NCBI GenBank assembly: GCA_026016245.1 | Contig: CP061211.1 | Span: forward strand, 678,725 to 710,724 | Origin: Candidatus Pacearchaeota archaeon | GTDB taxonomy: Archaea; Nanobdellota; Nanobdellia; Pacearchaeales; UBA284 | Reading direction: 5' to 3' | DNA: 32,000 nucleotides | Shown: one piece after another, positions 705-31,245 of the stretch | Layout: the number at the start of each line of letters is the position of its first letter | Numbering within the stretch: the first letter of the stretch is position 1 | Position numbers and translations under genes: made by a program | Notes under the pieces: generated by a model | Database searches by the model: none | Told to the model about the DNA's origin: nothing | Seen by the model: only the letters and a program-made list of their open reading frames with translations

Positions 705-808
705 GGGCCCGACGCGATTCGAACGCGCGACACCTTGGTTGCTTCAAAGCTTAGGCTTTGACCCTTGCTTATAAAAGCCAAGTGCTCTACCAACTGAGCT
801 ACGGGCCC
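705..808 (-). tRNA. tRNA-Lys(UUU): tRNA-Lys (anticodon UUU) with a 32-nt intron at the canonical 37/38 position
   Basis: Reverse complement folds as GGGCCCG-TA-GCTC-AGTTGGTA-GAGC-A-CTTGG-CTTTTA[intron]A-CCAAG-GTGTC-GCGCG-TTCGAAT-CGCGT-CGGGCCC. The mature length is 72 nt. It is a GC-rich island in AT-rich DNA. Confidence 0.9.
740..771 (-). other. tRNA-Lys intron (TAAGCAAGGGTCAAAGCCTAAGCTTTGAAGCA)
   Basis: Removing these 32 nt restores a 7-nt anticodon loop CUUUUAA between the CTTGG/CCAAG stem. A hand fold gives a bulge-helix-bulge: 4-bp helix CUUU:GAAG flanked by 3-nt bulges UA|U and CA|A. Confidence 0.8.
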
Positions 809-5858: not shown

Positions 5859-6560
5859 TTAGTAAACCCAGCCAAATAATAAAGCTATACCAATTAACAC
5901 AAGCAAGATACCAGCAATAAGATGCAATAATCTTAGATTCTTCTCACGCCATCCATAAACAGCGTCAATAGTTGAAAAGCCAAAATAAATTATTAAGGTT
6001 ATTGCTATCATTGGCAAGACAAAAATCAAATTATAAACCAAAAGCATGGGGACTATTTCCAGAAGCGTTATAGGTTCGAGAATTCCACAACATATTATGT
6101 AAGGGCCCATAGTACATGGAGTGAGGAATAAAGAACAGAAAATACCAATAATAATAGCTCCCTTTACTGAAGTAATTCTTGAAATGAGATCTTTCATTCT
6201 TGGACGCCATTTTCTTGGCACCTCAGTAACAAAACCTCCTGCTCCATAAGAGAAGAAATCTTTTATGTTAAATCCTCCTAATACAATGCCAACAATACCT
6301 AGAGTACGGTAAAGCCATATTTTAAACACAGCAAGTTGGGTTAATGCTTTGAAAAAATTAATTAGGATAAGACCATAAAAAAAATACATTACAAAGATAG
6401 CAGCTGTAAAAGCAAATCCTATTTGTAAAACTTTTTTTCTTTGTCTTGGAAATCTTGTAAGTATGGCTATGAGCGCAAGAGTTAGGACTGCTAGCTCACA
6501 AGGATTCACAGCATCAGCTGCAGCAAGTCCTAATAATGTTGCCCAAGTTAGATCTACCAT
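5859..6560 (-). CDS. ccdA: CcdA/DsbD-family transmembrane thiol-disulfide electron transporter
   Basis: Polytopic protein with paired membrane-embedded Cys motifs DAVNPCELAV and LTPCTMGPY. Confidence 0.8.
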   Translation of the reverse strand: MVDLTWATLLGLAAADAVNPCELAVLTLALIAILTRFPRQRKKVLQIGFAFTAAIFVMYFFYGLILINFFKALTQLAVFKIWLYRTLGIVGIVLGGFNIKDFFSYGAGGFVTEVPRKWRPRMKDLISRITSVKGAIIIGIFCSLFLTPCTMGPYIICCGILEPITLLEIVPMLLVYNLIFVLPMIAITLIIYFGFSTIDAVYGWREKNLRLLHLIAGILLVLIGIALLFGWVY

Positions 6561-14320: not shown

Positions 14321-14408
14321 TTCTATTTTACCTTCAGTTGTTTCTGTATAAAAGGTATATTTAACATATATAAATTAATGTGTGGGATTTTCCACACCAT
14401 TAGAAAGA

Positions 14409-14416
14409 TTTAAAAA
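14409..14416 (+). promoter_or_regulatory. TATA box TTTAAAAA
   Basis: 30 nt upstream of ATG 14439. Confidence 0.5.
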
Positions 14417-14438
14417 TATATATTTCTCCTTATTCTAT

Positions 14439-15161
14439 ATGGAAATAATAAACAATTTAGAAAAGTTAGGATTGACAAACACAGAGTCAACAATATACCT
14501 CGCATTATTAAAAATAGGGGAATCAACTGCTGTTCAATTAGCTAAGGAAATAAAGATTCATAGAAGAACAATATATGATAATCTTAATATACTTCTAAAA
14601 AAGGGTTTGGTTGGTTATAAAATAAAAAACAATGTAAGATATTTTGAAGCTAATAATCCAATAACATTTCAATCATTTTTAGAAGAGAAAGAAAAAACGC
14701 TAACAAATATTTTGCCAGCACTGCAGTCATATTATAAAAATAAACAAAAATCTCCACAGATAAATGTTTATATTGGAGTTCAAGGAGCAAAATCAATTAT
14801 AGAAGAAGCCATACAAACAAAACAAACACTTTATTGGGTAGGTGGAGGCTTGTATTTTTTTGATGCAATTGGATACTCTAGAAAGTTTATTGAGGAAAAA
14901 TTGTCAAGAACAGATATAAAAATTATACAAACAGCAACTCCCAATATAAAAGAAAAATTAAAAATATTCAAGAAAAATAATATTAAGATTTTGCCTGAGA
15001 AATATTCATCAAAAGTGGGTTATCTGATATATGGTAACACAATTGCTATTGGGTTGTTACAGGAAAAAGAAATGATAATAATAAAAATAATAAGCAAGGA
15101 ATTTTCAAAAGGATATAAAAATTACTTTGACATAATGTGGAACCTTGGAAAAAATATATAA
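14439..15161 (+). CDS. TrmB-family transcriptional regulator
   Basis: Sequence MEIINNLEKLGLTNTESTIYLALLKIGESTAVQLAKE..RRTIYDNLNILLKKGLV. I chose this start by TATA spacing. The track start at 14382 would place the TATA box inside the CDS. Confidence 0.75.
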   Translation: MEIINNLEKLGLTNTESTIYLALLKIGESTAVQLAKEIKIHRRTIYDNLNILLKKGLVGYKIKNNVRYFEANNPITFQSFLEEKEKTLTNILPALQSYYKNKQKSPQINVYIGVQGAKSIIEEAIQTKQTLYWVGGGLYFFDAIGYSRKFIEEKLSRTDIKIIQTATPNIKEKLKIFKKNNIKILPEKYSSKVGYLIYGNTIAIGLLQEKEMIIIKIISKEFSKGYKNYFDIMWNLGKNI

Positions 15162-15301: not shown

Positions 15302-16798
15302 TTAACACTGTCCGCCTTGATTAGATGTTCCCCAACCAAATCCTGGATTTGGATTTTCTGTGCTTAGAGTTTCTGAACATTCACTTGGTTTTGTTGAAAA
15401 TGCCTCGCATAATTTTTGTTTAATATCTTCAGGACTTCTTGGCCAAATCTCAACAACTTGACCATCAATAACTGTAGTTGGACTTCCTTTTACATCATAT
15501 TTATCATTAAGAGTTTTATCTTCTTCAAAATAACTTTCTGCTTTTGATTCCATACAAGAGTTAAGTTTTGATTCATCTGTACCTATTTGTGTTAAACAGC
15601 TTTCATAATCACCAGATCCAGCATAACATTTTAAGTAGGGTATTAATTTTGAATATTGTTCTTCTCTTATGCAAATCATTCTATAATTCTCATCTTCTTC
15701 TTTTTGGCCATGCATTGTATAACTTACAAACCTTAATTCTATGTTAGCCTTGTCTTGGAATTTTTCCATAACTGGCAACATACCTTTTAACATCTGTAAG
15801 CCATAAGGACAGTAAGACATTATGAAAACTTGCATTGTTGGTGCTCCTTGAATTTTTGTTGCACTTCCTGTAGTACTTCCTTTTTCAATATATTTTTCGT
15901 GAAGTGTTACTTTAATTGTTATTTTCTGGCCAGCAAATTCAGGATTTGCATCCAAGAAAATGTGAGTATCATTCATATCTGTAACAATGGCTTCTGGAAA
16001 ATTTGGTAATTCCATTTCTTGTCCAATTTCTGGGGTTAGTGTCAGGGTGATTTTATTTTCTGTAAAGTTTATGTAAAGATCTCCGTTTGGTGTAGGGATA
16101 ATTGAATCTACACCAAGAAGTTTTAGCTTGATTTTATCTTCTGTGATTCCTATGACTTCAGCTGGGAAATATCCTAATGAAGCAATTTCATCACCTATTT
16201 TTGTTTCTATTGATAATTTTACTTTTGTGTCAGTGACTTCCAGAACTTTGTATTTCCATTGTGAGAATTGTAATGTATATATTTTGTCCACTTCTGGCTG
16301 TTCCTTAAATATCTCTATGAATTCATCTGTTGTTAGGGTATCTGTTCTATTTATCTCATTTATTCTATCAATTTCTTCTACTCTAACATATTCAAATACA
16401 AGCTCTTTATCATATTCTCCAAAAGCATCACTAGGTTCGAGCGTGATAGTTTTATCTTCACCTTCCTGCATGATTTCAATTTCCTGGTCAAGTTTATCTG
16501 TTTCAAATCCAAGAGATGAGGCAATTGTTCCTGGCATAAAACTTTTTGTGCCAGAATCAAGAATTGTGCCATCTGCGAGCTCAATACTATAGCTTATATT
16601 AGTCATTTCTTGAGTTGGTGTTGTTTTTGTTAAGATTAAAATTAGAACTATTATCAAAATAATTACAACAATAGCAAAAATACCAATACCAATTCTCTTC
16701 CAGTTTGGCTTTATTTTTGTTTTTGGCTTAGGATTAGGATCAGAAGTTGTTTCTTCTTTGTTTATTTCTACATCTCCCTTAGCCTCGTCTGTTTCCAT
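15302..16798 (-). CDS. Membrane-anchored exported fusion: SlyD-like FKBP peptidyl-prolyl isomerase (with IF-like insert) plus a DsbA-like thioredoxin-fold domain
   Basis: Basic N-terminus followed by a TM segment. FKBP pattern ISYSIELADGTILDS..LEPSDAFGEYDKELV and FLDANPEFAGQKITIKVTL (compare SlyD D.NHPLAGK.L.F). The C-terminal DsbA-like part is QVFIMSYCPYGLQ..GSPTTVIDG. Confidence 0.65.
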   Translation of the reverse strand: METDEAKGDVEINKEETTSDPNPKPKTKIKPNWKRIGIGIFAIVVIILIIVLILILTKTTPTQEMTNISYSIELADGTILDSGTKSFMPGTIASSLGFETDKLDQEIEIMQEGEDKTITLEPSDAFGEYDKELVFEYVRVEEIDRINEINRTDTLTTDEFIEIFKEQPEVDKIYTLQFSQWKYKVLEVTDTKVKLSIETKIGDEIASLGYFPAEVIGITEDKIKLKLLGVDSIIPTPNGDLYINFTENKITLTLTPEIGQEMELPNFPEAIVTDMNDTHIFLDANPEFAGQKITIKVTLHEKYIEKGSTTGSATKIQGAPTMQVFIMSYCPYGLQMLKGMLPVMEKFQDKANIELRFVSYTMHGQKEEDENYRMICIREEQYSKLIPYLKCYAGSGDYESCLTQIGTDESKLNSCMESKAESYFEEDKTLNDKYDVKGSPTTVIDGQVVEIWPRSPEDIKQKLCEAFSTKPSECSETLSTENPNPGFGWGTSNQGGQC

Positions 16799-16827: not shown

Positions 16828-16843
16828 TCTTTCGAACTAAAAA

Positions 16844-16851
16844 TTTATAAG
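16844..16851 (+). promoter_or_regulatory. TATA box TTTATAAG
   Basis: 44 nt upstream of ATG 16888. The SD-like AGAGGT lies 5-10 nt before the ATG, so this unit has a leader. Confidence 0.45.
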
Positions 16852-16887
16852 TTACTCCTTCTTGATTTTTTTGAAAAAGAGGTTGAG

Positions 16888-18216
16888 ATGCCAGAAGATA
16901 TTATTATTGGAAGGAGTGAGGCTGATAAAAAAAGATTTGGTTCTGAAGCTTTGATATATCTAGGCAAGCATTTTGTGAAGATGGGCCAGATTACTAGTTT
17001 GAGTAATAAGATTATGATGGATGTTGCTCGAGCTCACATAGTTCTTGTGGCAGGAAAGAGAGGAAGTGGAAAATCATACACCTTAGGTGTTATTTCTGAG
17101 GAAATAAGTAATTTGCCTAGGGCTGTCAGTCAAAATATGGCTGTGCTGATTTTTGATACTATGGGAATTTTTTGGACCATGGCTTATAGGAATGAGAAGG
17201 AAAGGGAGTTGTTGAAAGAATGGAGGCTTGAGGCAAGGAAATTGGATGTAAATATTTTTGTTCCTTTTGGTTATGCTGAGAAATGGCGCGAGAAAGGAAT
17301 TCCTGTCACTAAGGAATTTGCTATTAAAGTTAGTGAGATTGAGGTTGATGATTGGATTTTGACTTTTGGATTGGATTTTATTGATCCTATTGCTATTGTT
17401 ATTGCAAGAAATGTTACTAAGTTAAGAGAAGGACTTGAAGAAGAAACTATCAGGGATTTTGATGTTGATGATATAATTAAAGCTATAAGGCTGGATAAAG
17501 ACGCTGGAAAAGATGAGAGAGATGCTGCTGTTAATTTATTTGGAGGGGCTAAGACATGGGGGATTTTTGCTTCTAAAAAACAGAAAGGAACCAAGATTTC
17601 TGAGCTGATAAGTGCTGGCAAAACTTCTGTTCTGGATTTAAGTGCTTATTCAAGTGTTGGAACTGTAAATATTCGCGCTTTGGTTATTGGCATTATTTCA
17701 AAAAAATTGTTTAAGCAAAGAATGACTGCAAGAAAACATGAAGAAATCGAGGCTGTCAGGCATGGTTTAGATTATTTATATTACAAGGAGAAGAGAGAGA
17801 TGCCAATGGTGTGGATTTGTATTGATGAAGGACACGAATTTCTGCCATTGACAGGCAAGACTGCTGCAACTGATGCTCTTATACAGTTGCTTAGAGAAGG
17901 AAGGCAGCCTGGCATAAGTTTGGTTATAGCAACTCAACAGCCTGGTCAAATCCATAAAGATGTTATGACGCAGTCAGATATTGTTGTAAGCCATAGAGTT
18001 ACTGCTAAACCAGATATAGATTCCTTGAATTATATAATGCAGACTTATTTGCTGGCTGATATTAAAACTTATTTAGATAATTTACCTCGGTTGAAAGGTT
18101 CTGCAATCATATTAGATGATAACAGCGAGAGGATTTATCCTATGAGAGTCAGGCCAAGATTCACATGGCATGGTGGTGAAGCCCCAACTGCTGTTAGAGT
18201 AAAAAAAAGAATTTGA
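16888..18216 (+). CDS. HerA/FtsK-superfamily (DUF87-type) P-loop ATPase
   Basis: Walker A is AGKRGSGKSYT and Walker B is VWICIDEGHEF. The HerA-type REGRQPGISLVIATQQP..QSDIVVSHRV motif is present. Only about 50 aa precede Walker A. Confidence 0.8.
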   Translation: MPEDIIIGRSEADKKRFGSEALIYLGKHFVKMGQITSLSNKIMMDVARAHIVLVAGKRGSGKSYTLGVISEEISNLPRAVSQNMAVLIFDTMGIFWTMAYRNEKERELLKEWRLEARKLDVNIFVPFGYAEKWREKGIPVTKEFAIKVSEIEVDDWILTFGLDFIDPIAIVIARNVTKLREGLEEETIRDFDVDDIIKAIRLDKDAGKDERDAAVNLFGGAKTWGIFASKKQKGTKISELISAGKTSVLDLSAYSSVGTVNIRALVIGIISKKLFKQRMTARKHEEIEAVRHGLDYLYYKEKREMPMVWICIDEGHEFLPLTGKTAATDALIQLLREGRQPGISLVIATQQPGQIHKDVMTQSDIVVSHRVTAKPDIDSLNYIMQTYLLADIKTYLDNLPRLKGSAIILDDNSERIYPMRVRPRFTWHGGEAPTAVRVKKRI

Positions 18217-18259
18217 GGAAGGGAATAGTTACTATTGTTTAATGACAATAAACGAAAAG

Positions 18260-18267
18260 TTTATAAG
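18260..18267 (+). promoter_or_regulatory. TATA box TTTATAAG
   Basis: 30 nt upstream of ATG 18290. Confidence 0.5.
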
Positions 18268-18289
18268 TTAGAAATTCTTATTTTTTCTG

Positions 18290-20422
18290 ATGGCAGAGTT
18301 AGAAAGTCTTTTTAATGGAAATGGAAAACCTCTAGTTAAAGGCATTAATTTCTCATTTAGTGATCTTCATCTTTTTGAAAAAGGTGAACCAAGATTATAT
18401 ATTGAGAAAAAGATACAAAGGCAAGAATTTCTACCAGTTATTTATGTAGAATATGCTCTTGAATTAGGTGAAGCTTTAAAAAGTCTTTTTAAAAGTATGG
18501 TTGGTAATTTTTCTACATGTATTAGTGATTTGGGTGAGAAATTAAGTAAGAAAGAAGAAAAATCAAGAAAAAAATATTCAAGGAGAGAAGAGCAGGAAGA
18601 ACAGCAAAGAAAAATAGATATAAAATTTGCTGGTAGAGTAAACCCACTATTTAATTTTAAATTAATCTGGCCTAAAGAAGAACTAGAATTTTTTGAAAAA
18701 ACAGCTTGGCAAGATAGAGATTTTAATGCTTTAGAAGAAGTTGTATCAGAGGTTAGGGGAACTAGGGGATATGATCTTGTAAAGGAACAATATATAAAAA
18801 ATATATTAGAAAAAATACCTCCTCAGGCTGAAGGAACTGAAAAAGCTAATATGGCTCTTCTTTCAATCGTCTCTCATGCTCATAATTATTTCAAAAAAGT
18901 TGAGAAAATGCTGAATGGCGTTCCTATGTGTAATAAAAACTTATTCAGATATAAAATTGCTTGTCCTATCTTAGAAGAAATTTTGGGAGAAAAAAATATA
19001 GAAGAGATTACAAAAAAATCTTCTTATTCCTATTTTTCATCCCCATTTTTTATAGTTTCAGGAAATGATTTTGAAATTTCTGATGTTATGCTTTACTTAG
19101 GAAAAGTGGATCCTATAAATTATTTGCTTATGGATAGAGAAGTTAAAAGAATTGTAAAACAGAAATTTAATGAAGAAGATTATTCTATTTTAGATGTATT
19201 TCCAGAAAGAGAGAAAAAAACAAGGAAAAATATTTTAAAAAGAATATTGGGTGAAGAATTAACAGAAATAAATAATGAGATGGAAACTTTTGCCAGAGAC
19301 CCAAGAATAGCAAGTAAAATCTTAGATACTATGTCTAGTGATTTAAAAAATAAAGGAATTAATGGAGAGGAAATAGAAAATTATATTTCTACATTGAAAA
19401 AGATCAAACAATCAGAAATTATTAATTTTCTTTCTGGTGTCATAGAAGAAACAAGCAGGGTGGAGAATAAAGAATTATATGAAAAAGGCTCTATTTATAT
19501 TATAAATAAAAATGCGCCGATAAGAAGGTCAAGAACAAAAGCTGTTTGCCAATCTACAGACATGAGGCATTCCCAATCATTTGATGATGAGAATAGGCAA
19601 CAGGTGATTGATGAAGTTCTAGGAGCTGGATCTATATTAGATAAACTTTTCAAAAGATATAGAATATGCAAGCATGATGTTTCATTGGGAGATGCAATAG
19701 AAGGAGTTGATATAACTGAATTCAAATACCTAAATACTCTTCTCTCACAACAAGATTTTTTTAGAGATCTAGAAAAATGGATGAAGGAGGGTAGGATTCC
19801 GAAATCATTAAGAGAAGAAGCAAAGTTTGGTAGCGTGATTTGTACTGGTGAAATATATGAAGATGATCTAAAAAAATACGTTAAAAATACTTGGAGTAAT
19901 TTAAGATATTTAACAGAATCTGGAAAGCCTGAGTCTGGGTTGATTATTAATGGTCAAAAGACCCGCTTTGAGAATACAGGCCTCATAGTTACTGGGGATT
20001 TTATAGATGGCCTTAAAAAGAACATTGAAGAAGTTGTAGGTTACATGAAGAAAGATGAATCCAGATGGATAGTCCCAGAACGTATAAGGTCTTGGTATGA
20101 AAATAAAATAAGAGAGATAAGAGCACAAATAAAAGACAAGAAACAGTTTGAGGGTATTAATCTTTATTTAACAGATGGTATTACAAATCCTATACAAATA
20201 CTAGAAGACCTAGGCAAGAGAATAAAAGAAGAGAGAAAAGAAGCTGAAATTTCTATGCTGGAAAATATCAAAATAAAATATTGGAGAACCCCTCTTTTAG
20301 AAACTATTTATCATCTAGGGCGTCCCATTAAAGGCAAGGGAGATTATGATATATATTTCATACCCATGGGTGAAGAGCAAAAGAAAGATTATAACAGGGT
20401 TCTTATATTCGGCGAGGTCTAG
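18290..20422 (+). CDS. Large K/E-rich soluble hypothetical protein (710 aa), no motif recognised
   Basis: Long uninterrupted ORF with its own TATA box. I see no TM segment or signal peptide. Confidence 0.7.
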   Translation: MAELESLFNGNGKPLVKGINFSFSDLHLFEKGEPRLYIEKKIQRQEFLPVIYVEYALELGEALKSLFKSMVGNFSTCISDLGEKLSKKEEKSRKKYSRREEQEEQQRKIDIKFAGRVNPLFNFKLIWPKEELEFFEKTAWQDRDFNALEEVVSEVRGTRGYDLVKEQYIKNILEKIPPQAEGTEKANMALLSIVSHAHNYFKKVEKMLNGVPMCNKNLFRYKIACPILEEILGEKNIEEITKKSSYSYFSSPFFIVSGNDFEISDVMLYLGKVDPINYLLMDREVKRIVKQKFNEEDYSILDVFPEREKKTRKNILKRILGEELTEINNEMETFARDPRIASKILDTMSSDLKNKGINGEEIENYISTLKKIKQSEIINFLSGVIEETSRVENKELYEKGSIYIINKNAPIRRSRTKAVCQSTDMRHSQSFDDENRQQVIDEVLGAGSILDKLFKRYRICKHDVSLGDAIEGVDITEFKYLNTLLSQQDFFRDLEKWMKEGRIPKSLREEAKFGSVICTGEIYEDDLKKYVKNTWSNLRYLTESGKPESGLIINGQKTRFENTGLIVTGDFIDGLKKNIEEVVGYMKKDESRWIVPERIRSWYENKIREIRAQIKDKKQFEGINLYLTDGITNPIQILEDLGKRIKEERKEAEISMLENIKIKYWRTPLLETIYHLGRPIKGKGDYDIYFIPMGEEQKKDYNRVLIFGEV

Positions 20423-20469
20423 ATATTAAACTTAAAGAATAAAAATGTCATCACTCAAAAATAAAAAAT

Positions 20470-20477
20470 TTTATAAG
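20470..20477 (+). promoter_or_regulatory. TATA box TTTATAAG
   Basis: 29 nt upstream of ATG 20499. Confidence 0.5.
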
Positions 20478-20498
20478 ATAAAGAATATTAGTTAAAAA

Positions 20499-21917
20499 AT
20501 GGCAGATAAAAACGAAAACCTTTCAATAATAACCTCAAAAATTGTAGAGGCAGAAATAGGCTGTATTATAAAAACAAAGAAAGGAGATAAATACAGGTTA
20601 GTTGGGACAGCACCGATAACAAAAATAAAAAAAGATTCAACTTTTGGCCCTAGAATTATCGAAATAATAGCTTATAAAAAAGGGCAAAAGAAAGGAAAGA
20701 AGAAATTAGATAGAGATAGAGAAAAAGAAATGAAAAATGAAATTAACAAGATGACTGAAACACTATTTGGTAAAAGCTATGATTATAACAATGAAATCCC
20801 TCTTGATATTCTTTACGAGATGCTAGATAGATATAAGGTAGGTGCTCTTAGAGAATTTGATGAAACTGCAAGAAAAGAGATTTACAAAAAAATTGGGTGG
20901 TATGTAAACTCTAATCCAAATACTCGGATGCAGCACTGTAACAATGAAAACCCTAAAGATAAAATAAGTTTCTCTGAAATTAAAAATAATGATGAAGTTA
21001 AAGTTAGTACATATTTAACTTACGAACCTTATTATTCATTAGAAGACTGCCTTAGAGATATGGACTTGAGCGTGGAGAGTATATATGAAGTTATTGAAAA
21101 AAAAGAAAAAGACAATGATAAAGAAAGAGAAAGAAAATTTGAGGCAAAGAAGAAATTATATTGGAATAAAACAATAAAAGCATTGAGTAACAGGGAATTT
21201 CCTTTAAATCTTGCTTTAGTTCTTCTTTCTTATTCAACTAGTGAAAATATCAGAAGAAAAGCAAAAGAAAATCTTTTTTCATATATAAAGGATGATGTTG
21301 TAATAGATGGTCCAAGATCTAAACAAGATGCACAGCAACTAGATTTTACATTTACTAGGGGAAATGGTGATCATCAACTTGTGGTATATTGGTTAAAATA
21401 TCTGAAAGAAGGAAATCTTCTGAATTCAATTATTGGAAAAATTGCTGAAGATAAAAAGAAGTATCCTGGCGAAGATTTAGAGAGAAAAAAGAAAAGAATT
21501 TATGATCTCTATAATGCTCGTGAAAAAGAAACCTTATATGAAGTTAGTATCAGAGCTAGTGATGTGTTGAAACAGAAAATTATGATTGGAATGATTAAGG
21601 AGGGTGTTGATTATAACTTCTTGGATAGCGCTCTTTTTTCAGACTTATTTGTGTGGAAGGGTAAGAATGATAGAAGAATTATTATGTTGAGACCTTATGA
21701 TGAGAGTTATTTATCTGAACCAGTAAACTTAGATGAAAGGACTAGAAAACTTTCCAAAGATTTGGATAAGTTAAAAATAGAAACAGAGTTACGTAATGAA
21801 TACTACAAAATATTTAGGAATGTAGGTGTTGGAACACAGATAATTAGCGCAGAAGGGAAAGATCTAGTGGAAGTAAAAAATACATTCTTTAAATATATTA
21901 TTCCTTCTATTCTATGA
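20499..21917 (+). CDS. K/E-rich soluble hypothetical protein (472 aa), no motif recognised
   Basis: Long uninterrupted ORF with its own TATA box and no TM segment. Confidence 0.7.
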   Translation: MADKNENLSIITSKIVEAEIGCIIKTKKGDKYRLVGTAPITKIKKDSTFGPRIIEIIAYKKGQKKGKKKLDRDREKEMKNEINKMTETLFGKSYDYNNEIPLDILYEMLDRYKVGALREFDETARKEIYKKIGWYVNSNPNTRMQHCNNENPKDKISFSEIKNNDEVKVSTYLTYEPYYSLEDCLRDMDLSVESIYEVIEKKEKDNDKERERKFEAKKKLYWNKTIKALSNREFPLNLALVLLSYSTSENIRRKAKENLFSYIKDDVVIDGPRSKQDAQQLDFTFTRGNGDHQLVVYWLKYLKEGNLLNSIIGKIAEDKKKYPGEDLERKKKRIYDLYNAREKETLYEVSIRASDVLKQKIMIGMIKEGVDYNFLDSALFSDLFVWKGKNDRRIIMLRPYDESYLSEPVNLDERTRKLSKDLDKLKIETELRNEYYKIFRNVGVGTQIISAEGKDLVEVKNTFFKYIIPSIL

Positions 21918-21923
21918 GAAGAT

Positions 21924-21931
21924 TTTTAAAA
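21924..21931 (+). promoter_or_regulatory. TATA-like TTTTAAAA
   Basis: 28 nt upstream of ATG 21952. Confidence 0.45.
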
Positions 21932-21951
21932 AAGAAAAACTTCTTCTATTT

Positions 21952-23220
21952 ATGCTTTGGACACATGTAGTATTGTATATTATTGCATATTTTGGCCTGT
22001 TTACAGCTAGTTTTTTTCTCTTGACTTATTTTGGAGGCAGAAAAAAAGAGCGTGATCCTGAACCAAAGCGTTTTCCTTTTGTTTCCATAATCATAAACAT
22101 GTGGAATGAGGAGAAAGCGATAGCTAGAACTATGAGATCTATACTTAACTTAGATTACCCAAAAAACAAGTATGAGATTATTGTTGTTGATGACGGTTCG
22201 ACTGACAGAACTTATGAGATAGCAAAATCTTATTCTGGATCTTTACCCCATGTTCGTGTATTTAAGAAAGAGAATGGCGGAGCAGCCTCAGCAAAAAATT
22301 ATGGTTTGAAAAAAGCTAGAGGAGAGATTATTGCTACTCTTGATGCAGATTCTTTTGTTTCAAAAGATGCCTTAAAAAAGATGGTGGGTTATTTTGAAGA
22401 TAAAGATGTATGGTCTGTTACAGCTGCTTTAAATGTTTACAAGCCCAAAAGATTCCTGCAACATTTACAGTGGGCAGAATACATAATGAGTATCTTTCTA
22501 AGGAAGGTTTTCAGTATAGCAGATGCTATCCATGTTATTCCTGGTCCTTTTTCCCTGTTCAGAAAGGAATTCTTCAAAAAGCATGGAGATTTTGATGAAG
22601 GTAATATAACAGAAGATACAGAAATAGCAATGCGCATACAGTCTTTAGAATATAAAATCAAGAATAGTGTAAGTGCAAACATCTATACTCTCTTACCAAG
22701 CACACTTGGCGGATTAATGAAGCAAAGAATAAGATGGTATTATGGTTTTATACATAATTCTTTACAATATAAACAACTTTTCAATCCAATCAGAAGAAGA
22801 GATAATCTTGCTGTTTTAATTCTTCCAGCAGCACTTATCTCAGTTGTTCTCTCAATTCTTGCTGTCTTCATATTCTTTTATGAAAATATAATTTTGTTGG
22901 AAGATAACGTAATAAGGCTTATGGTAACAGATTTTGATATTTTGCCTAGTTTATTGAGTATTGATTGGGGATATATCAAAGAATTTATTATTAGTTATGT
23001 TTCAAATCCACTTATTGCTTTTATTATAATTGGTATGGCATGCGCTGCTATGCTTATTATTTTAGGGAAAAAAGAATCAAAAGAGAAAAGAAAAATGGTC
23101 TGGGCTTTTGTTTCCTTTTTCCTTACTTACTGGTTTTTTTATGCTTCGTGGTGGATAGGAACTTTTATTTATCGTGGTGTTTTAAGAAGAAAAATTAAGT
23201 GGGGGCCCAGATATTATTAA
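21952..23220 (+). CDS. Membrane-integrated processive family-2 glycosyltransferase (PgaC/IcaA/NodC/cellulose-synthase-like)
   Basis: Motifs VVDDGSTD, LDADS, TEDTE and QRIRWYYG (D,D,D,QxxRW), with TM segments at both ends. Confidence 0.8.
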   Translation: MLWTHVVLYIIAYFGLFTASFFLLTYFGGRKKERDPEPKRFPFVSIIINMWNEEKAIARTMRSILNLDYPKNKYEIIVVDDGSTDRTYEIAKSYSGSLPHVRVFKKENGGAASAKNYGLKKARGEIIATLDADSFVSKDALKKMVGYFEDKDVWSVTAALNVYKPKRFLQHLQWAEYIMSIFLRKVFSIADAIHVIPGPFSLFRKEFFKKHGDFDEGNITEDTEIAMRIQSLEYKIKNSVSANIYTLLPSTLGGLMKQRIRWYYGFIHNSLQYKQLFNPIRRRDNLAVLILPAALISVVLSILAVFIFFYENIILLEDNVIRLMVTDFDILPSLLSIDWGYIKEFIISYVSNPLIAFIIIGMACAAMLIILGKKESKEKRKMVWAFVSFFLTYWFFYASWWIGTFIYRGVLRRKIKWGPRYY

Positions 23221-23227
23221 AAAGAAA

Positions 23228-23920
23228 ATGATAATTGGAAAAAGAGGTATAAGTCATTTTGAATTAATAACAGCGATATTAATTTTTATTTTTGCTATAG
23301 CTGTCATTGTTTATTTTATAAATACTGGTATGAAAATAGACACTTCACAAGCTGTTCTAGATGCTCTTGAAGCCAATCTTAAAGAAAATGCTGAAATTGA
23401 ATATGGAAAGATTTTATTGTTTGCTGATTCTGATGCAAATTGTTTTAATATTTCTCTTCATTCTGATTTAAGTGAGGATTTTCTTACTTTTATTAAAAAT
23501 GGGGATGGTGTTGCTTTTAATTTTTCAAATGGGTGGCTTTTAATAAATAATACAGGACAAAATCTTTACAAAATTTATTTTTTTCCTGTTAATATGACTA
23601 AAGATATAAGGTTAGAAGATGGAGAGTGTACTGAATTAACACAAGGCCAAGATTATAATTATAGCATAATATATCGTGGCAAAATTTTTACAGAAAAAAA
23701 TCTTTCACAGCTTGAAAATATGGATTATGGAAACTTAAAATCAATGTTTAATTTAGGAAATAAGGATTTTGAGATTAGAATTAATGCTTTAGATATTCAT
23801 ATTGGTGAGAAAATTCCGCCAGAGCAGGTTGAGGTTCAGGTAAGAGAGATTTTTGTGGATATTATTTTGGAAGATGGAACAATAATCAAAAAAGCAAAAA
23901 TAAATATGAAAGTTTGGTAA
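23228..23920 (+). CDS. Pilin-like protein with an archaeal class III (type IV prepilin-like) signal
   Basis: Sequence MIIGKRG|ISHFELITAILIFIFAIAVIVYFI has a basic residue, then Gly, then a hydrophobic helix. Confidence 0.55.
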   Translation: MIIGKRGISHFELITAILIFIFAIAVIVYFINTGMKIDTSQAVLDALEANLKENAEIEYGKILLFADSDANCFNISLHSDLSEDFLTFIKNGDGVAFNFSNGWLLINNTGQNLYKIYFFPVNMTKDIRLEDGECTELTQGQDYNYSIIYRGKIFTEKNLSQLENMDYGNLKSMFNLGNKDFEIRINALDIHIGEKIPPEQVEVQVREIFVDIILEDGTIIKKAKINMKVW

Positions 23921-23926
23921 AATAAA

Positions 23927-24349
23927 ATGTTGAAGAGAAAAGAGGGATGGATATTAATTGTTGAATCTGTTATTGCAATTATGATTCTGTTTGGTTTTCT
24001 TTTTACAACAATAGCCAAGCAGTCAGAACAGATAAAAGTTGTGGATAAGGGAGAGTATCTCTATAATGTAGTTAATGAACTTGCATTTAGAGCTGAAAAA
24101 AATGAAACAATAAGAAATTTTGCTCTAAAAGAAAAAAAAGATGAAGTTAAGTCATTATTAATCATTGAACTTAGTGAAATGAATGTTAAAGGAATAATCT
24201 TAGAATCAAAAATTTGTAATCCTGATGATGAATTTTGTGATATTCCTGTATCAGAAGATGTAGGGGATATTTATAGCTCAGAGATTATTATAGCTACAAA
24301 TTCAACAAGTTATGAGACAAAAAAATTAAAAATTTTTATTTGGGAATAA
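23927..24349 (+). CDS. Pilin-like protein with a class III-like signal
   Basis: Sequence MLKRKEG|WILIVESVIAIMILFGFLF has an early Glu after the Gly, as in type IV (pseudo)pilins. Confidence 0.5.
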   Translation: MLKRKEGWILIVESVIAIMILFGFLFTTIAKQSEQIKVVDKGEYLYNVVNELAFRAEKNETIRNFALKEKKDEVKSLLIIELSEMNVKGIILESKICNPDDEFCDIPVSEDVGDIYSSEIIIATNSTSYETKKLKIFIWE

Positions 24350-26310: not shown

Positions 26311-28773
26311 ATGGTCATTTCAAAAAAGATTGATCATAGAAAGAGAAAAAAAAGAGAGAATTTTTTTGGAATTCCTTTCCTGCCTTTGGCTTTTTTATTA
26401 TTACTTTTGATTGTTCTTTTTCTCTTGCCCCCAATTAAATTGCAGACTTCTGGCATCATGCCTAGCATTACTGGAAAAGTAGTTGATGATATTTATTTAG
26501 AAGAAACAACTTATAGGCCAGATAGACCTTTAGAAGGAGGTCTTAATTTGAGATTTTATTGGGGAGATTTAATTCCTCAAGAAACTAATGTCACTTTTGA
26601 TATCACATCAATAAAATGTAAACATTTTTATGTTTGTGGTTCAGATGGTGGTTTGATTGGGTGGGAGGTATATAATTTTACTAGCGGAAAATGTGAGAAT
26701 GTTTCTGTATGGGTTTATGGACCCTGGGATGAATGCGGGGAAGATAAATATTATACATACCCTAATATATTTAGTAATATTAATTGTGCTGGTTTGGGAG
26801 GAGCTTGCTGTAAATCTGGTGAAGGTTTGGGATATTTCTATCCTAACTTGGATTGCAATACAAAAGAATGCTGGGATGAATGCAAGATAACAAAGAAGAA
26901 AACATTGATTGAATCAATAGCTTTATCAACAACACCTTGGAAGGGAAATCATACTTCTGGGATATTTAATAATGTGAATGGTTCTAATCCTCCTGTAAAT
27001 TCTGGGTGGGGTTTTGGCGCATGTCCTTCTATTGCCCCTGCTCCTAATTATACTTATCCTGTTACTTATGCAATTAATCCTACAGGCTATATTGTCCAAC
27101 AACCATCACCACCACTGCCAGACTTAACTGTTTTAGATATTTACACTTCTGAATATGCCCCTCAACCACCACAACTATCATTATACGCTATCCAGCAACC
27201 AAGCCCAACCAAAAGACTCTACACAAAAATAAAAAATCTTGGAGGGCCAATTGGAAGTAAAAAGGTAAAAGCAGGAGCATTCACTGTTGTTGGCTGTTGG
27301 TATGATTATACTTCTCCAACACCACTAGGACGGGCAGGGCCTATACCTTCTAATTGTTTTTTTATTAAGAGGATTAATAATATGGCACAAAATCAAGAAA
27401 TGATTTTAGATATGGGTAGTTGGAATATACAAGGCAAGGCAGTTCAGGTTATTGTTGATTACTATAAAGAGATAGATGAAAAAAATGAATATAACAATGA
27501 GATGATAAAATATTTCCCTGGAGTAGTGCCGCCAAAACCAGACCTAGTTGTTTTAGATATTCAAAAAAAACAATATGAATCAGTAGAAGGTACGAAGATA
27601 ACAATGAAAAATATTGGTCCTGGTTCTGTTCTTGTAAAGTCTTTCTGGGTTAAAATTACTTATTATATTGGAGCTGAAAGATGGGAAAATGAATATCAGA
27701 TACAGAATCCAGGAATTGCGCCTAATACAGTATTTACTCTTGATGTTAGAGACAAGGATATAACTGGTAAGGCAGTTAATGCCACTGCTTTTGTTGATTC
27801 AAGATATAATGTAGATGAATTGGATGAGAATAATAATGGGTTGACTAAATGGCTATTACCTTATTCTTGTGAGAATTGGAATAATGTTTATGTTATTCCT
27901 TTAGATGATATTGGTTTAAAAACGCCAGATTATGAAGGAACATACATCTTAGATATCTCTCTTGTTTATGGAGATGTTACCATGTACAGTTCTTCAGTAT
28001 TATTCGAAGTTGCTGAAAAAGAACCAACACATAATGTTTGTCAAAACCAAAAGTGTGTAGAGGTAACTGGTGCTGGAACTGATCAGTGTCAGACTAATGC
28101 TGATTGTAAGACTACTTGTAATGAGAACTGGCAGTATGGTGTTTGGAGCGATTGTATAGGCGGACAGAAAAGAAGAGAGTGTTATGATGCTAATAACTGT
28201 AATACAACTTATAGTAAGCCATCAAATTGTATGCTTTTTGCAGGTAAATATTATCAGACTGAGAGCTGTTGTGTTTCAGAATGGCAGTGTGATGAGTGGA
28301 GTGTTTGCTATGATTACCAAGGAGAGAATGTTCAGAGCATGACTTGTGAGGATCTTAATAAATGCAGTCCACAGAATTACACTTACCTACAATTGAGAGA
28401 TTGTTGCATAGAAGAATGGGATTGTGAATGGAGTAGTTGTATTGATGGTAGGCAAGAACTTTTATGTGAGGACTTAAATAATTGTGGTACTGAATTTACC
28501 AAGCCTTCAGAAACAAAAGATTGCGAAGAAAGAGCTATAGCATGGTGGGTTTGGTTTATAATAATCTTGGTGCTTGTTGTAGTAATTCTTGCTGTTCTTA
28601 TTGGAACAAAACGATTACCTTGGTTCAAGAAGAAGCCTAAAGTAAGAAAATATCCTCAGCTTGATGAATATATAAGAAAAGCAACTGAAAGAGGCATGTC
28701 AAAAGCAGAAATAAAAACAAAACTCATTGAAACTGGCTGGCCAGAAGATGCAGTTAGCGAAGCTTTAAAATAA
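26311..28773 (+). CDS. Giant Cys-rich surface protein, paralog 1: signal anchor, 2 CARDB-like domains, 3 W/C-rich repeats, C-terminal TM and a cytoplasmic tail
   Basis: N-terminal FFGIPFLPLAFLLLLLIVLF. CARDB-like PDLTVLDI.. and PDLVVLDIQ..KNIGPGS..ELDENNN. The C-terminal TM is WWVWFIIILVLVVVILAVLIG. Many NxS/T sequons. Confidence 0.8.
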   Translation: MVISKKIDHRKRKKRENFFGIPFLPLAFLLLLLIVLFLLPPIKLQTSGIMPSITGKVVDDIYLEETTYRPDRPLEGGLNLRFYWGDLIPQETNVTFDITSIKCKHFYVCGSDGGLIGWEVYNFTSGKCENVSVWVYGPWDECGEDKYYTYPNIFSNINCAGLGGACCKSGEGLGYFYPNLDCNTKECWDECKITKKKTLIESIALSTTPWKGNHTSGIFNNVNGSNPPVNSGWGFGACPSIAPAPNYTYPVTYAINPTGYIVQQPSPPLPDLTVLDIYTSEYAPQPPQLSLYAIQQPSPTKRLYTKIKNLGGPIGSKKVKAGAFTVVGCWYDYTSPTPLGRAGPIPSNCFFIKRINNMAQNQEMILDMGSWNIQGKAVQVIVDYYKEIDEKNEYNNEMIKYFPGVVPPKPDLVVLDIQKKQYESVEGTKITMKNIGPGSVLVKSFWVKITYYIGAERWENEYQIQNPGIAPNTVFTLDVRDKDITGKAVNATAFVDSRYNVDELDENNNGLTKWLLPYSCENWNNVYVIPLDDIGLKTPDYEGTYILDISLVYGDVTMYSSSVLFEVAEKEPTHNVCQNQKCVEVTGAGTDQCQTNADCKTTCNENWQYGVWSDCIGGQKRRECYDANNCNTTYSKPSNCMLFAGKYYQTESCCVSEWQCDEWSVCYDYQGENVQSMTCEDLNKCSPQNYTYLQLRDCCIEEWDCEWSSCIDGRQELLCEDLNNCGTEFTKPSETKDCEERAIAWWVWFIIILVLVVVILAVLIGTKRLPWFKKKPKVRKYPQLDEYIRKATERGMSKAEIKTKLIETGWPEDAVSEALK
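26357..26420 (+). repeat. Conserved 64-nt block, copy A (N-terminal signal-anchor region)
   Basis: Matches 28838-28901 with 3 mismatches by hand alignment. Confidence 0.8.
27196..27312 (+). repeat. Near-identical 117-nt block, copy A (QPSPTKRLYTKIKNLGGPIGSK.VKAGAFTVVGCWYDYT)
   Basis: Matches 29383-29499 with 2 mismatches by hand alignment. Confidence 0.85.
28344..28512 (+). repeat. Near-identical 169-nt block, copy A (CEDLNKCSPQNYTYLQLRDCCIEEWDCEWSSCIDGRQELLCEDLNNCGTEFTKPSE)
   Basis: Matches 30903-31071 with a single mismatch (28449 T versus 31008 C, synonymous). Confidence 0.9.
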
Positions 28774-28815: not shown

Positions 28816-31245
28816 ATGGAAAGATGGAAAGAAAAAAAGAATTTTTTTGGAATTCCTTTCCTGCCTTTAGCTATCTTATTATTACTTTTGATTGTTCTTT
28901 TAGTTTTGCCTCAAGTTAAATTGCAAGGTGATTTCATTACTGGAGAAGTAACTAGCAACATCCAATTAACAGAAACAGATTATGGGCCAAATGAGAATTT
29001 AAAAGGCAAGACAAACATAAAATTTTTCTGGGGTGATTTAATTCCTGGAACAACTAATGTTGAGCTCATAGTTTCTGGTGGTGATTATGGTTCAAATCTA
29101 ACAATGCAATTACCCCAAGCAATAGCTCTCTCAAGCACACCTTGGAAAGGAAATTTTACTTATGGGCCTTTTAAAAATATGAATGGTCCTTCTCCTGTAG
29201 GAGGGGGTTATGGTTTTGGAGCTTGTTCTTCTATTATTCCTGCTCCTAATTACACTTATCCTGTTACTTATGCAGTTCAACAGCCAGTACCAATCACACC
29301 AGACTTAACTGTTTTAAATATTTACACTTCTGGTCTTATCCCTGTTCCAACTTATCCTGCAGTAACAGGTATGATTACTCAACAACCAAGCCCAACCAAA
29401 AGACTCTATACAAAAATAAAAAATCTTGGAGGGCCAATTGGAAGTAAAGAGGTAAAAGCAGGAGCATTCACTGTTGTTGGCTGTTGGTATGATTATACTA
29501 GCCCTACACCAACACCTTTAGTAGCAGTTGATGGTTATATTCCTAGTAATTGTTTTTATATTAAAGATATTTCACAAATAAGATATGGTCAAGAAATAAT
29601 TTTAGATATGGGATACCGAGCTGTTGAAGGCAAAACAGTCCAGGTTATTGTTGATTATTATGATGATATACATGAGACTAATGAGCAGAATAATGAGATG
29701 ATAAAGAATTTTCCAGGAGTAGTTCCCCCTCAATGTATAGATCCTGATGGTTTGGATTATTTCACAAAAGGAACATGCACAGATATTGAAGGGAGCAAAG
29801 TTGATTACTGCAGTCCTGATGCTGAAAATCTTTTAATAGAATATTATTGTCCTACTATAGTACCATCACCTTTATGTGCCCCAACACAATATGTTTGTCC
29901 TAATGGTTGTGAGGATGGAAAATGTCTTGAACAAGAACCTACGCCAGCATGTAAAGACAGTGATGGTGGTAAGAATTATGGATTAAAAGGCACATGCCAA
30001 GATATTGATGGCATGTATACTGACTATTGTCTAGAAATAAGTCCTGGACAAAATGAAGGAAATCTTGCTGAATTCTATTGTACTGGTAATAATTTAATAA
30101 TGTGGGATTTTTGTAGTGATTGTTCTGAGCCTTATTGTGCTTATATTGGATCTAGAAGCGAAGGATGGTATGCCAAATGTCCTAAGGGTGAGAGATTGAT
30201 TAATTATGAAACATGTTCTATCAGAGAGAAATTTAAACCTCAATGCTTGTATAAAGGATCAAAAAGCGAAGGATGGTATACTCCTGATGTTTGTGATAGG
30301 GAAGATTTCAATTGTTATTATGGCTGTTTAGATGGTACTTGTAAAATAAGTAATTATTCTTGTGAAAATTGGAATAATATTTATGAGATTAATTTAAATA
30401 ATTTGAATATAAAGACTCCTCAAGAAGATGGAACTTATAATTTTACTGTAAGATTAACATATGTAGGAGGAGTGCCAGGTATTCGTAATGCTGTTCCAGC
30501 AAAAATAATTCTTTATTCTTATACTACTTCCTTTAATGTGCTTTCTCATAAAGCATGCCAGAGTTACCAGTGTATTTATATGGCTGGAAGCGGAGCTAAC
30601 CAATGTGAAAATGATAATGACTGCCGACCAACTGGTGGAGGTGGCGGCGGTGGCGGCGGAGGAGGCGGAGCCTGCAATGAATATTGGCAGTATGGTGATT
30701 GGAGTGAATGTATTGATGACAAAAGACAGAGAGAGTGTTTTGATGCTAGAAATTGTGGAACAATTTTTGCAAAGCCTTCATATTGCTTGCCTATTGAAGA
30801 TAAATATTATCAGACTGAATCTTGCATACCAGGATGTCAGGAAAACTGGCAGTGTACTGAATGGAGCTATTGTGATGAGCAAACACTTGAGCAGAGTTCT
30901 ATTTGTGAGGATCTTAATAAATGCAGTCCACAGAATTACACTTACCTACAATTGAGAGATTGTTGCATAGAAGAATGGGATTGTGAATGGAGTAGTTGTA
31001 TTGATGGCAGGCAAGAACTTTTATGTGAGGACTTAAATAATTGTGGTACTGAATTTACCAAGCCTTCAGAAGCAAGAGAGTGCAAGCCAGGACTTGCGTG
31101 GTGGATGTTATTGATAATAATTTTAGTGTTTGTTGTAGTAATTCTTGCTATTCTTTATGCGGCAAAGACATGGCCCTTTAAGAAAAAAGGGTTCAAAGCT
31201 GTTGGAAAAACAGAAGAAGCTGCTTTTAAAGAAATCAAAATATAA
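28816..31245 (+). CDS. Giant Cys-rich surface protein, paralog 2: signal anchor, 1 CARDB-like domain, extra Cys-knot-like cassettes, Gly12 linker, 3 W/C-rich repeats and a C-terminal TM
   Basis: It shares N-terminal, central and C-terminal blocks with paralog 1. Its unique cassette spans roughly 29734-30300. Confidence 0.8.
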   Translation: MERWKEKKNFFGIPFLPLAILLLLLIVLLVLPQVKLQGDFITGEVTSNIQLTETDYGPNENLKGKTNIKFFWGDLIPGTTNVELIVSGGDYGSNLTMQLPQAIALSSTPWKGNFTYGPFKNMNGPSPVGGGYGFGACSSIIPAPNYTYPVTYAVQQPVPITPDLTVLNIYTSGLIPVPTYPAVTGMITQQPSPTKRLYTKIKNLGGPIGSKEVKAGAFTVVGCWYDYTSPTPTPLVAVDGYIPSNCFYIKDISQIRYGQEIILDMGYRAVEGKTVQVIVDYYDDIHETNEQNNEMIKNFPGVVPPQCIDPDGLDYFTKGTCTDIEGSKVDYCSPDAENLLIEYYCPTIVPSPLCAPTQYVCPNGCEDGKCLEQEPTPACKDSDGGKNYGLKGTCQDIDGMYTDYCLEISPGQNEGNLAEFYCTGNNLIMWDFCSDCSEPYCAYIGSRSEGWYAKCPKGERLINYETCSIREKFKPQCLYKGSKSEGWYTPDVCDREDFNCYYGCLDGTCKISNYSCENWNNIYEINLNNLNIKTPQEDGTYNFTVRLTYVGGVPGIRNAVPAKIILYSYTTSFNVLSHKACQSYQCIYMAGSGANQCENDNDCRPTGGGGGGGGGGGGACNEYWQYGDWSECIDDKRQRECFDARNCGTIFAKPSYCLPIEDKYYQTESCIPGCQENWQCTEWSYCDEQTLEQSSICEDLNKCSPQNYTYLQLRDCCIEEWDCEWSSCIDGRQELLCEDLNNCGTEFTKPSEARECKPGLAWWMLLIIILVFVVVILAILYAAKTWPFKKKGFKAVGKTEEAAFKEIKI
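28838..28901 (+). repeat. Conserved 64-nt block, copy B
   Basis: Matches 26357-26420. Confidence 0.8.
29383..29499 (+). repeat. Near-identical 117-nt block, copy B
   Basis: Matches 27196-27312. Confidence 0.85.
30634..30669 (+). repeat. Twelve consecutive Gly codons (GC-rich island inside paralog 2)
   Basis: Sequence ggt gga ggt ggc ggc ggt ggc ggc gga gga ggc gga encodes G12. Paralog 1 has no equivalent at this position. Confidence 0.9.
30903..31071 (+). repeat. Near-identical 169-nt block, copy B
   Basis: Matches 28344-28512. Confidence 0.9.

Follow-up and report, generated by a model that had tools for sequence, protein, structure and literature searches.

When the gene of a HerA-type ATPase is followed on the same strand by two long orphan genes, do the three make up one ATPase-driven module? 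The question is raised by a 32-kb stretch of the Candidatus Pacearchaeota contig CP061211.1 (hereafter the window, 32,000 nucleotides (nts) analyzed at full length). A reading made from the sequence alone had proposed such a module there, acting either as a HerA-partnered effector system for defence or as a translocation motor serving the adjacent cell-surface locus. The three plus-strand open reading frames (ORFs) are exactly where this sequence-only reading had placed them: the ATPase, 442 amino acids (aa), at 16888-18216, orphan A, 710 aa, at 18290-20422 and orphan B, 472 aa, at 20499-21917. Analysis of related loci leaves the three-gene ATPase-driven module weakly supported. We favour, at roughly even chances, the reading that A and B constitute an autonomous, co-regulated and probably heteromeric accessory cassette inserted once after the ATPase gene, the ATPase being a housekeeping HerA-like translocase. 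This separates a core ATPase from its neighbours and corrects a tempting guilt-by-association reading; new here are the A and B gene families and two DNA signatures.

The ATPase and the distribution of the A/B pair

The ATPase is a strongly constrained core gene of Pacearchaeota and Woesearchaeota. A protein search returned 6,241 homologs, with more than 6,000 at 57-95% identity across the two groups; the best 120 are 64-100% identical over the full length, belong to Pacearchaeota and are named DUF87 or ATP-binding proteins; in a scan of one genome per GTDB species, the gene was found in at least 498 genomes. Twelve diverse homologs have on average 78% of their columns identical, and the ratio of nonsynonymous to synonymous substitution rates (dN/dS) is 0.04-0.09, compared to 0.11 for the M48 protease and 0.15-0.18 for the DsbA-like protein encoded nearby. 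All proteins encoded within 6 kb of the ATPase were clustered over 166 loci, and the recurrent neighbours are DsbA/thioredoxin-like proteins (94 loci), TRM5/TYW2 (83), RFC-type AAA+ proteins (80), FEN1 (43) and PolB (37). In the window, the genes upstream of the ATPase encode IscS, NifU, a ThiI-like protein, thioredoxin reductase, LemA and M48. Because these upstream genes and the recurrent neighbours are housekeeping and replication genes, the locus is not a defence island and this candidate was rejected. The replication-gene neighbourhood fits a housekeeping role in the handling of nucleic acids, and we infer that the ATPase is a translocase of nucleic acids that acts in replication, repair or segregation, putatively as a hexameric ring that translocates DNA. 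The gene was also found (60% identity), with RFC-like and PolB-sized neighbours, on a 181-kb contig labelled 'Patescibacteria group bacterium' (JAHYJW010000001.1), which is probably a mis-binned or mislabelled DPANN contig.

In contrast, the A/B pair is patchy. Downstream sequence of at least 4.5 kb makes 99 of the 172 ATPase loci informative; the cassette signature is present in 14 of these, corresponding to 9 distinct lineages, and A/B are absent from the other 85. Intact A and B were found in 8 lineages, always together (8/8). In the tree of the ATPase, all A/B-positive lineages fall into one clade and every lineage outside is without the pair. The clade also holds the pair-less lineages L089, L091 and L171, as well as L167 and L168, in which the ORF is degenerate or different: in L167 (8398-10264), as in L168, an A-type operator and promoter lie straight after the ATPase stop codon and precede a 25-codon ORF, and the cassette site of L167 also has a 457-aa ORFan without BLAST similarity to any A or B. 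The cassette of these two lineages is decayed or replaced at the same site. The simplest history of A/B is one gain followed by at least 3-4 losses. The ATPase is mostly found without A/B, close relatives included; in L005, L007, L008, L089, L091, L099 and L171, pilin-like genes directly follow it, and no column of its alignment separates carriers from non-carriers of the pair.

The assignment of the ATPase to the HerA/FtsK clade, made earlier from its motifs, stands. GKRGSGKS (residues 56-63), IDEGHEF (312-318) and ATQQP (348-352) are present, and GKRGSGKS, ICIDEGHE (310-317) and REGRQPG (336-342) are invariant in 12 homologs. The protein has the Walker A, the Walker B with its catalytic Glu and the arginine finger of an ASCE P-loop ATPase. 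Pfam PF01935 (DUF87/HerA central domain) matches residues 42-256 above the gathering score (E=3.9e-9); the gap of about 250 residues between Walker A and Walker B corresponds to this domain, which supplies the helical-bundle insert in the RecA-like core. The best PDB sequence matches are the HerA chains 8wiv, 8xau, 9c1m, 8ziq and 4d2i, that is HerA of Sir2-HerA, DUF4297-HerA and NurA-HerA complexes, mainly over the Walker-B half. The best full-length match in PADLOC is to mad8 (residues 39-435 on profile positions 17-313/314, E=5e-19), accompanied by HerA models, and NCBIfam gave weak EssC/EccC matches (E=5.5e-5 to 1e-2).

Only about 50 residues precede Walker A, as had been noticed, since the ORF is not extendable upstream and 12 homologs share its start Met. 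In this short segment and elsewhere no HAS-barrel was matched in Pfam at E<=0.1. The HAS-barrel is the domain of HerA that binds NurA (PMC9960219). A Pfam scan of the larger window ORFs, several short ORFs (~100-146 aa) remaining unscanned, revealed no NurA, Mre11 or Rad50, in agreement with the sequence-only reading that this is not the canonical end-resection operon; a canonical HerA-NurA operon was rejected. The ATPase also scores far below every NCBIfam HerA equivalog cut-off (best HerA_Thermprot, 37.9 bits versus 800). As the HAS-barrel, the NurA neighbour and the equivalog score all fail, the protein is not HerA proper; it is a HAS-less HerA-clade ATPase, nearest in architecture to mad8 and to relatives on haloarchaeal plasmids. 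It has no membrane anchor, and neither a scan of IMG/VR nor tblastn against phage genomes gave any relative. Found beside replication genes in hundreds of genomes, this HAS-less ATPase is an uncharacterised core protein that is worth study in itself; a literature search gave nothing relevant on DPANN HerA or on hypervariable Pacearchaeota loci.

The nearest relative found outside DPANN is encoded on a plasmid of Haloplanus sp. HW8-1 (NZ_CP098519.1, 114950-117258; 33% identity over 90% of the query, E=1e-60). Its gene overlaps the stop codon of a gene for a 380-aa protein with a weak PglZ C-terminal match and adjoins genes for a BREX-type ATPase, a DpdA/TGT-like protein, a PD-(D/E)XK nuclease and a helicase. 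This cluster may be an undescribed defence operon and, being defence-like, it indicates that short HAS-less HerA relatives can be associated with defence. A and B are unrelated to the partner of the haloarchaeal homolog.

Families, switches and allele exchange of A and B

Judged by their sequences, A and B are two new protein families. The window proteins gave nothing in Pfam, NCBIfam, PADLOC, PHROGs or PDB, seven members of each family gave no Pfam, PADLOC or PDB match and no recurrent family, and searches of the PDB with profiles of the A and B alignments gave nothing; neither protein fits a known family. In a k-mer-seeded/HMMER search of 5.8 billion proteins, each orphan found only itself. 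A filter-free HMMER scan of 1.84 billion representatives detected just one protein related to A, P0123 (763 aa, 28% identity, E=1.9e-31), encoded directly after an ortholog of the ATPase and followed by a B-sized gene and then a pilin-like gene. When every ORF of the fetched loci was searched with phmmer and jackhmmer, the window alleles remained unlinked to the others, and by BLASTP and jackhmmer the A and B proteins sort into three allele groups that barely detect each other. The groups were connected by profile-profile comparison (hhalign). For A, group 1 and group 2 match with 98.5% probability (E=1.7e-15) over 648 collinear columns, and window A matches group 1 with 90.5% probability (E=1.4e-6) over 550 collinear columns. 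For B, the corresponding values are 96.5% (E=7.6e-10) and 73% (E=3e-5), the latter over the C-terminal 225 columns; window B moreover shares 28% identity (94 bits) with the partner in L166. Controls of A against B profiles gave no similarity. From the profile matches, the similarity to L166 and these negative controls, A and B emerge as two mutually unrelated, always-paired families.

Sizes range from 710 to 781 aa for A and from 444 to 540 aa for B: 761 and 472 aa in L001/L002/L086, 781 and 458 aa in L169/L170, 768 and 540 aa in L006, 729 and 525 aa in L090, 765 and 460 aa in L088, and 741 and 498-516 aa in L003/L004. Since same-size positional homologs exist in 8 lineages and the genome has 31% GC, the long ORFs of A and B are not due to chance. 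Both window proteins contain 23% K+E and have no transmembrane (TM) segment, signal peptide or significant internal repeat, and the earlier description of soluble, K/E-rich and motif-free orphans held. The A alignment (A2) has 12 invariant columns (the start Met, E5, L7, K94, N187, F219, D424, S428, G520, G677, G684 and Y689) and the B alignment (A4) has 4; they are mostly G, aromatic or aliphatic and form no recognisable catalytic or nucleotide-binding motif. An N-terminal motif, L-E-x-L-F-x-G-x-G or in its looser form L-E-x-L-[FCIV]-x-x-x-G, is found in each of the 8 alleles of A. The two products are predicted to be soluble and non-enzymatic, and indications from modelling are that they may be largely helical; the AlphaFold2 models themselves (A from a 2-sequence alignment with P0123, B from a single sequence) reached a mean predicted local distance difference test score of 31.3 and 34.3, respectively, and were discarded.

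In contrast to the coding sequences, which have diverged beyond recognition amid similar neighbours, the switches of the cassette are conserved. The TATA boxes that had been assigned to A and B individually were confirmed (TTTATAA at 18260 and 20470, 29-30 nts before the ATGs), and another TTTATAA precedes the ATPase. The extended motif AAWNTTTATAAG has 3 occurrences in the 32 kb, one ahead of the ATPase, one ahead of A and one ahead of B, against 0.47 expected, and 3 were reached in 1 of 100 shuffles. The ATPase promoter (16835-16874, plus strand), whose B recognition element (BRE)/TATA AAAATTTATAAG lies at 16840-16851, is kept in all lineages; it has a leader with a Shine-Dalgarno-like GAGGT before the ATG at 16888 and no upstream operator element. 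In the alignment of 8 lineages, about 40 nts before A are near-invariant, with the sequence TAGTTACYATT-N4-ARTGAC...CGAAAG-TTTATAAG; in the window, this operator-like element (TAGTTACTATTGTTTAATGAC) and the BRE/TATA of A occupy 18226-18267 on the plus strand. The segment GTTACYATTNNNNARTGA is present in 13 of the 171 fetched loci and in the window (18228), in each case immediately before A, and it does not recur elsewhere in 2.25 Mb. A block akin to it, GTYATCACTNNAAAAT...GAAAAC-TTTATAA, lies in the spacer between A and B (operator-like element GTCATCACTCAAAAAT and BRE/TATA of B, 20445-20477, plus strand); GTYATCACTNNAAAAT occurs only upstream of B, in 8 loci and in the window (20447), and the B operator of group 2 is the variant GTAATCACT. 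We read these blocks as putative operators for a dedicated regulator, placed ahead of promoters of a leaderless type. The two short DNA signatures find the cassette specifically, and the two family alignments can seed searches.

A and B evolve much faster than the ATPase. Between L090 and L006, the ATPase is 95% identical, A 34% and B 40%; between L166 and L090 the values are 93%, 21% and 19%, and between L169 and L001 they are 92%, 54% and 54%. In the L169-L001 comparison (dS ~1), dN/dS is 0.04 for the ATPase, 0.11 for M48, 0.18 for TRX, 0.26 for B, 0.32 for the pilin and 0.34 for A. A and B are under weak purifying selection, about eight-fold looser than that on the ATPase, rather than under positive selection throughout. 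The window alleles are too different for steady divergence to account for them: the proteins flanking the cassette are 74-93% identical between the window and L001, with a dS (0.83-1.26) similar to that of L169-L001, and at the L169-L001 rate (dN 0.3 at dS ~1) about 55% identity would be expected for A and B, whereas at most 22% is observed and BLAST detects nothing. At the DNA level, window and L001 are 78-83% similar through the ATPase gene and the following intergenic region; the similarity ends about 30 nts into A and resumes in a 42-nt stretch just past the stop codon of B. The groupings by bit score also differ: the ATPase and TRX group as (window, L001, L169), (L166, L090, L006) and (L003, L088), A and B both as (window, L166), (L001, L169, L090, L006) and (L003, L088). 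As these distances misfit the species tree under any rate variation, the A and B alleles were exchanged between lineages, or old alleles were sorted, independently of the ATPase.

Explanations for the cassette

On the reading that we favour, the ATPase and A/B would be two separate things that are adjacent by descent, the ATPase working independently of the orphans. The cassette would go back to a single acquisition by the ancestor of one Pacearchaeota subclade, and one dedicated regulator would switch on A and B together; a single regulator is suggested because each gene has its own BRE/TATA and a related, cassette-specific operator. As A and B always co-occur and fall into the same allele groups, a heteromeric A-B complex is most likely. 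Whole alleles would be replaced between lineages through homologous recombination in the conserved flanks, upstream the ATPase 3' end with the A promoter, downstream the region past the B stop codon, and the operator blocks may also be anchors of this recombination. The rapid turnover suggests that A and B would engage a fast-changing outside partner (virus, host or competitor) rather than serve permanently as part of a motor that is conserved. What is shown directly are the gene structure, the distribution, the rates of evolution, the conflict between trees and the conserved regulatory blocks; the complex, the common regulator and a role in conflict or interaction are putative. In genomes as tiny as those of DPANN, a 3.6-kb cassette with dedicated and conserved regulation is unlikely to be idle, and the combination of conserved switches, unrecognisable coding sequences and allele exchange marks it as a candidate interface between DPANN episymbionts and viruses or hosts.

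Several observations weigh against this reading, and most of them argue for a possible but doubtful alternative, closest to what survives of the earlier idea, in which A and B would be exchangeable adaptor, specificity or substrate subunits of the HerA-like hexamer; the N-terminal peptide of A would dock on the motor, the variable bodies would meet the targets, and the core motor would moonlight in a subclade-specific system for defence or for export and remodelling. In 7 of the 8 intact lineages, covering two downstream contexts (pilins, or TRM5 and FEN1), A and B come straight after the ATPase and share its strand, L003 being the lineage with three mixed-strand genes in between. P0123, the sole relative returned by a search blind to gene context, also adjoins an ATPase; all other copies of A/B were found by inspecting the surroundings of ATPases. 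The adjacency is thus weaker evidence than it looks, since the sampling is biased to ATPase neighbourhoods. The exact core promoter AAWNTTTATAAG is found in the window only at the ATPase, A and B, and over 40 nts the promoter of the ATPase is 78% identical to that of A. The N-terminal peptide of A, with E5 and L7 invariant, belongs to the small number of segments conserved in this protein, is kept in all 8 alleles and may be a docking motif for a partner that is conserved, for example the ATPase. The defence-like operons of haloarchaeal plasmids, with their short HAS-less relatives of the ATPase, point the same way. Moreover, the mean dN/dS of A and B is below 1, and their complex and their role in conflict are inferences rather than direct observations.

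Against subunits of the motor speak the universality of the ATPase and the lack of A/B in most genomes that carry it, sister lineages included, the lack of any rate change or residue in the ATPase that discriminates A/B carriers, the swapping of A/B alleles without the ATPase at a breakpoint near the A start, and the lack of the A/B operator at the ATPase promoter. A and B have no effector motif, and the HAS-barrel, through which NurA binds HerA (PMC9960219), is missing. The gene order recurs in related genomes, where a lack of any synteny would have refuted the module claim; this is the part of the claim that stood, whereas the 85 loci without A/B and the conflict of the allele groups with the ATPase tree speak against the rest; the proposal of HerA-partnered defence effectors lost ground to the core status of the ATPase, its housekeeping neighbours, the missing HAS-barrel and the lack of any effector-like motif. 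Narrower still, and unlikely, is the version in which A/B dock through the N-terminal peptide of A on the HAS-less ring and thereby form a subclade-specific, rapidly diversifying system for antiviral defence or macromolecule delivery; if true, this would extend HerA partnerships by a new kind, in which the partner pair is non-enzymatic and swaps alleles.

The surroundings of the cassette could suggest a role at the cell surface, in which A and B would be cytoplasmic accessory factors of the adjacent island, for instance scaffolds for pilus or polysaccharide assembly that co-evolve with the surface. The pair lies between the ATPase and pilin-like genes in the window, L001, L169, L166, L090 and L006, it evolves at a dN/dS (0.26-0.34) like the pilin's (0.32), and a GT2 gene follows B in two lineages (window and L169). 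We consider this improbable: TRM5 and FEN1, and no pilin or surface genes, come after the pair in L088 and L003, many genomes retain the pilin-archease-RtcB block without A/B, the pilus assembly genes of L005 are conserved and located elsewhere, and A and B have neither membrane segment nor signal peptide. The pairs of L003 and L088 likewise weaken the earlier idea of a translocation motor for the surface locus, for which the ATPase also has no membrane anchor. Patchy presence, ORFan status, a variable insertion site after the ATPase and the different ORFan at the same site in L167 could instead designate A and B as remnants of an integrated virus or mobile element, such as structural or replication proteins. 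A prophage or mobile element was rejected, however: integrase, tRNA target and bounding repeats are all missing, the composition is like that of the surrounding genome, the same site is used in 9 lineages with conserved promoters of host type, tblastn of A and B against phage genomes and a search of PHROGs gave nothing, and the ATPase has no IMG/VR relative, which makes this origin very improbable. Least probable of all, and close to negligible, is a highly diverged end-resection set in which A and B would be unrecognisable partners of NurA, Mre11 or Rad50 type. The HerA-clade ATPase, the conserved neighbourhood of RFC, FEN1 and PolB in many lineages and sizes of A and B loosely like those of Rad50 and NurA/Mre11 would fit it, but no member of either family matches NurA, Metallophos, Rad50 or SMC models even at E<=1, and neither a Walker motif nor a cluster of conserved acidic or histidine residues occurs in A and B. 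They are also absent from most ATPase-bearing genomes, the NurA-binding HAS-barrel is missing (PMC9960219), and repair enzymes working on a motor that is 95% conserved would not fall to 34-40% identity (L090 versus L006).

Neighbouring genes and known systems

The window is AT-rich (about 31% GC, like the genome), its proteins match those of MAGs from Pacearchaeota and other DPANN, and no Rfam family was found in its intergenic regions. Divergently from the ATPase, a gene at 15302-16798 (minus strand) encodes a membrane-anchored FKBP/thioredoxin(DsbA)-like protein (Pfam FKBP_C, DSBA and Thioredoxin, one strong TM segment), whose homolog is upstream and divergent in 94 of the 166 ATPase loci, more than any other neighbour of the ATPase. 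Between it and the M48 protease gene, the window has a gene for a TrmB-family regulator (14382-15161, plus strand) that is missing there in L001 and L169. The cluster of thioredoxin reductase, glutaredoxin and Fe-S genes contains a gene at 5859-6560 (minus strand) for a strongly conserved 233-aa protein without Pfam match that is 86% identical to its L001 counterpart. Further upstream, at 704-808 (minus strand), Rfam matched a 105-nt tRNA (59.9 bits) that ARAGORN did not report and that is probably an intron-containing archaeal tRNA.

Downstream of B, the surface genes that had been noticed are indeed present: a GT2 synthase, two prepilin-like genes, archease, RtcB and two Cys-rich membrane-anchored proteins of about 810-820 aa. 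The GT2-family membrane glycosyltransferase (21952-23220, plus strand; Glycos_transf_2, E=1.5e-39) is 78% identical to its L169 copy. L001 keeps the first bases of this gene (ATGCTTTGGACAC) upstream of its pilin gene (14774-14814, the counterpart of window 21923-21964), and this deletion scar indicates that GT2 was lost in L001. The two type-IV-pilin-like genes (23228-24349, plus strand) encode proteins of 230 and 140 aa with class-III signal peptides, judged from their N-termini MIIGKRG|ISHFELITAILIF... and MLKRKEG|WILIVESVIAIM...; the L001 orthologs are 51-56% identical. The giant Cys-rich proteins (26311-28773 and 28816-31245, plus strand) have C-terminal membrane anchors and N-termini that are almost the same; about 55 aa (CEDLNKCSPQNYTYLQLRDCCIEEWDCEWSSCIDGRQELLCEDLNNCGTEFTKPSE) are identical in both, and the second also has a run of 12 glycines. 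The pair looks like a recent tandem duplication or gene conversion; the identities of an L001 ortholog to these copies are 63% and 46%.

Compared with known systems, the ATPase resembles HerA as a member of the FtsK/HerA P-loop superfamily with GKRGSGKS, IDEGHE, ATQQP and REGRQPG and the DUF87 insert. In contrast to HerA, it has no HAS-barrel and, among the larger ORFs scanned, no NurA, Mre11, Rad50, Sir2 or DUF4297 partner. It differs from the HerA of defence systems in being core and in housekeeping synteny, only A/B being patchy, and comparison with the effectors of Sir2-HerA and DUF4297-HerA failed, PADLOC and Pfam being blank for A and B and conserved catalytic residues being absent. Mad8 of the methylation-associated defence system MADS (PADLOC PDLC04140) has the same short architecture, but no other mad gene and no methyltransferase lies near the ATPase in the window. 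Unlike the haloarchaeal plasmid relative, the DPANN ATPase is not flanked by PglZ-like genes or by genes of BREX or Dpd type.

Type VII secretion employs FtsK-like EssC/EccC ATPases together with polymorphic LXG/WXG substrates. The likeness to it is a functional analogy only, consisting of an ATPase of the superfamily beside proteins that may be helical, with a short conserved terminal motif and hypervariable bodies. In contrast to EssC/EccC, the ATPase is single-domain without TM segment or FHA domain, no membrane channel partner lies nearby, and A (710 aa) and B (472 aa) do not resemble WXG100 or LXG proteins.

Strain-variable cassettes, such as surface-polysaccharide and pilin loci, consist of alleles that are replaced by recombination between conserved flanks. 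A and B share with them the conserved flanks, the unrecognisable alleles, the conflicting phylogeny, the patchiness and the position at the edge of a surface cluster. They differ from them in being predicted as soluble proteins without signal peptides or enzymatic domains and in retaining near-unchanged promoters and operators inside the variable stretch. It is this combination that is unusual: a cassette that would encode soluble, non-enzymatic proteins and yet holds strictly conserved internal promoters and operators.

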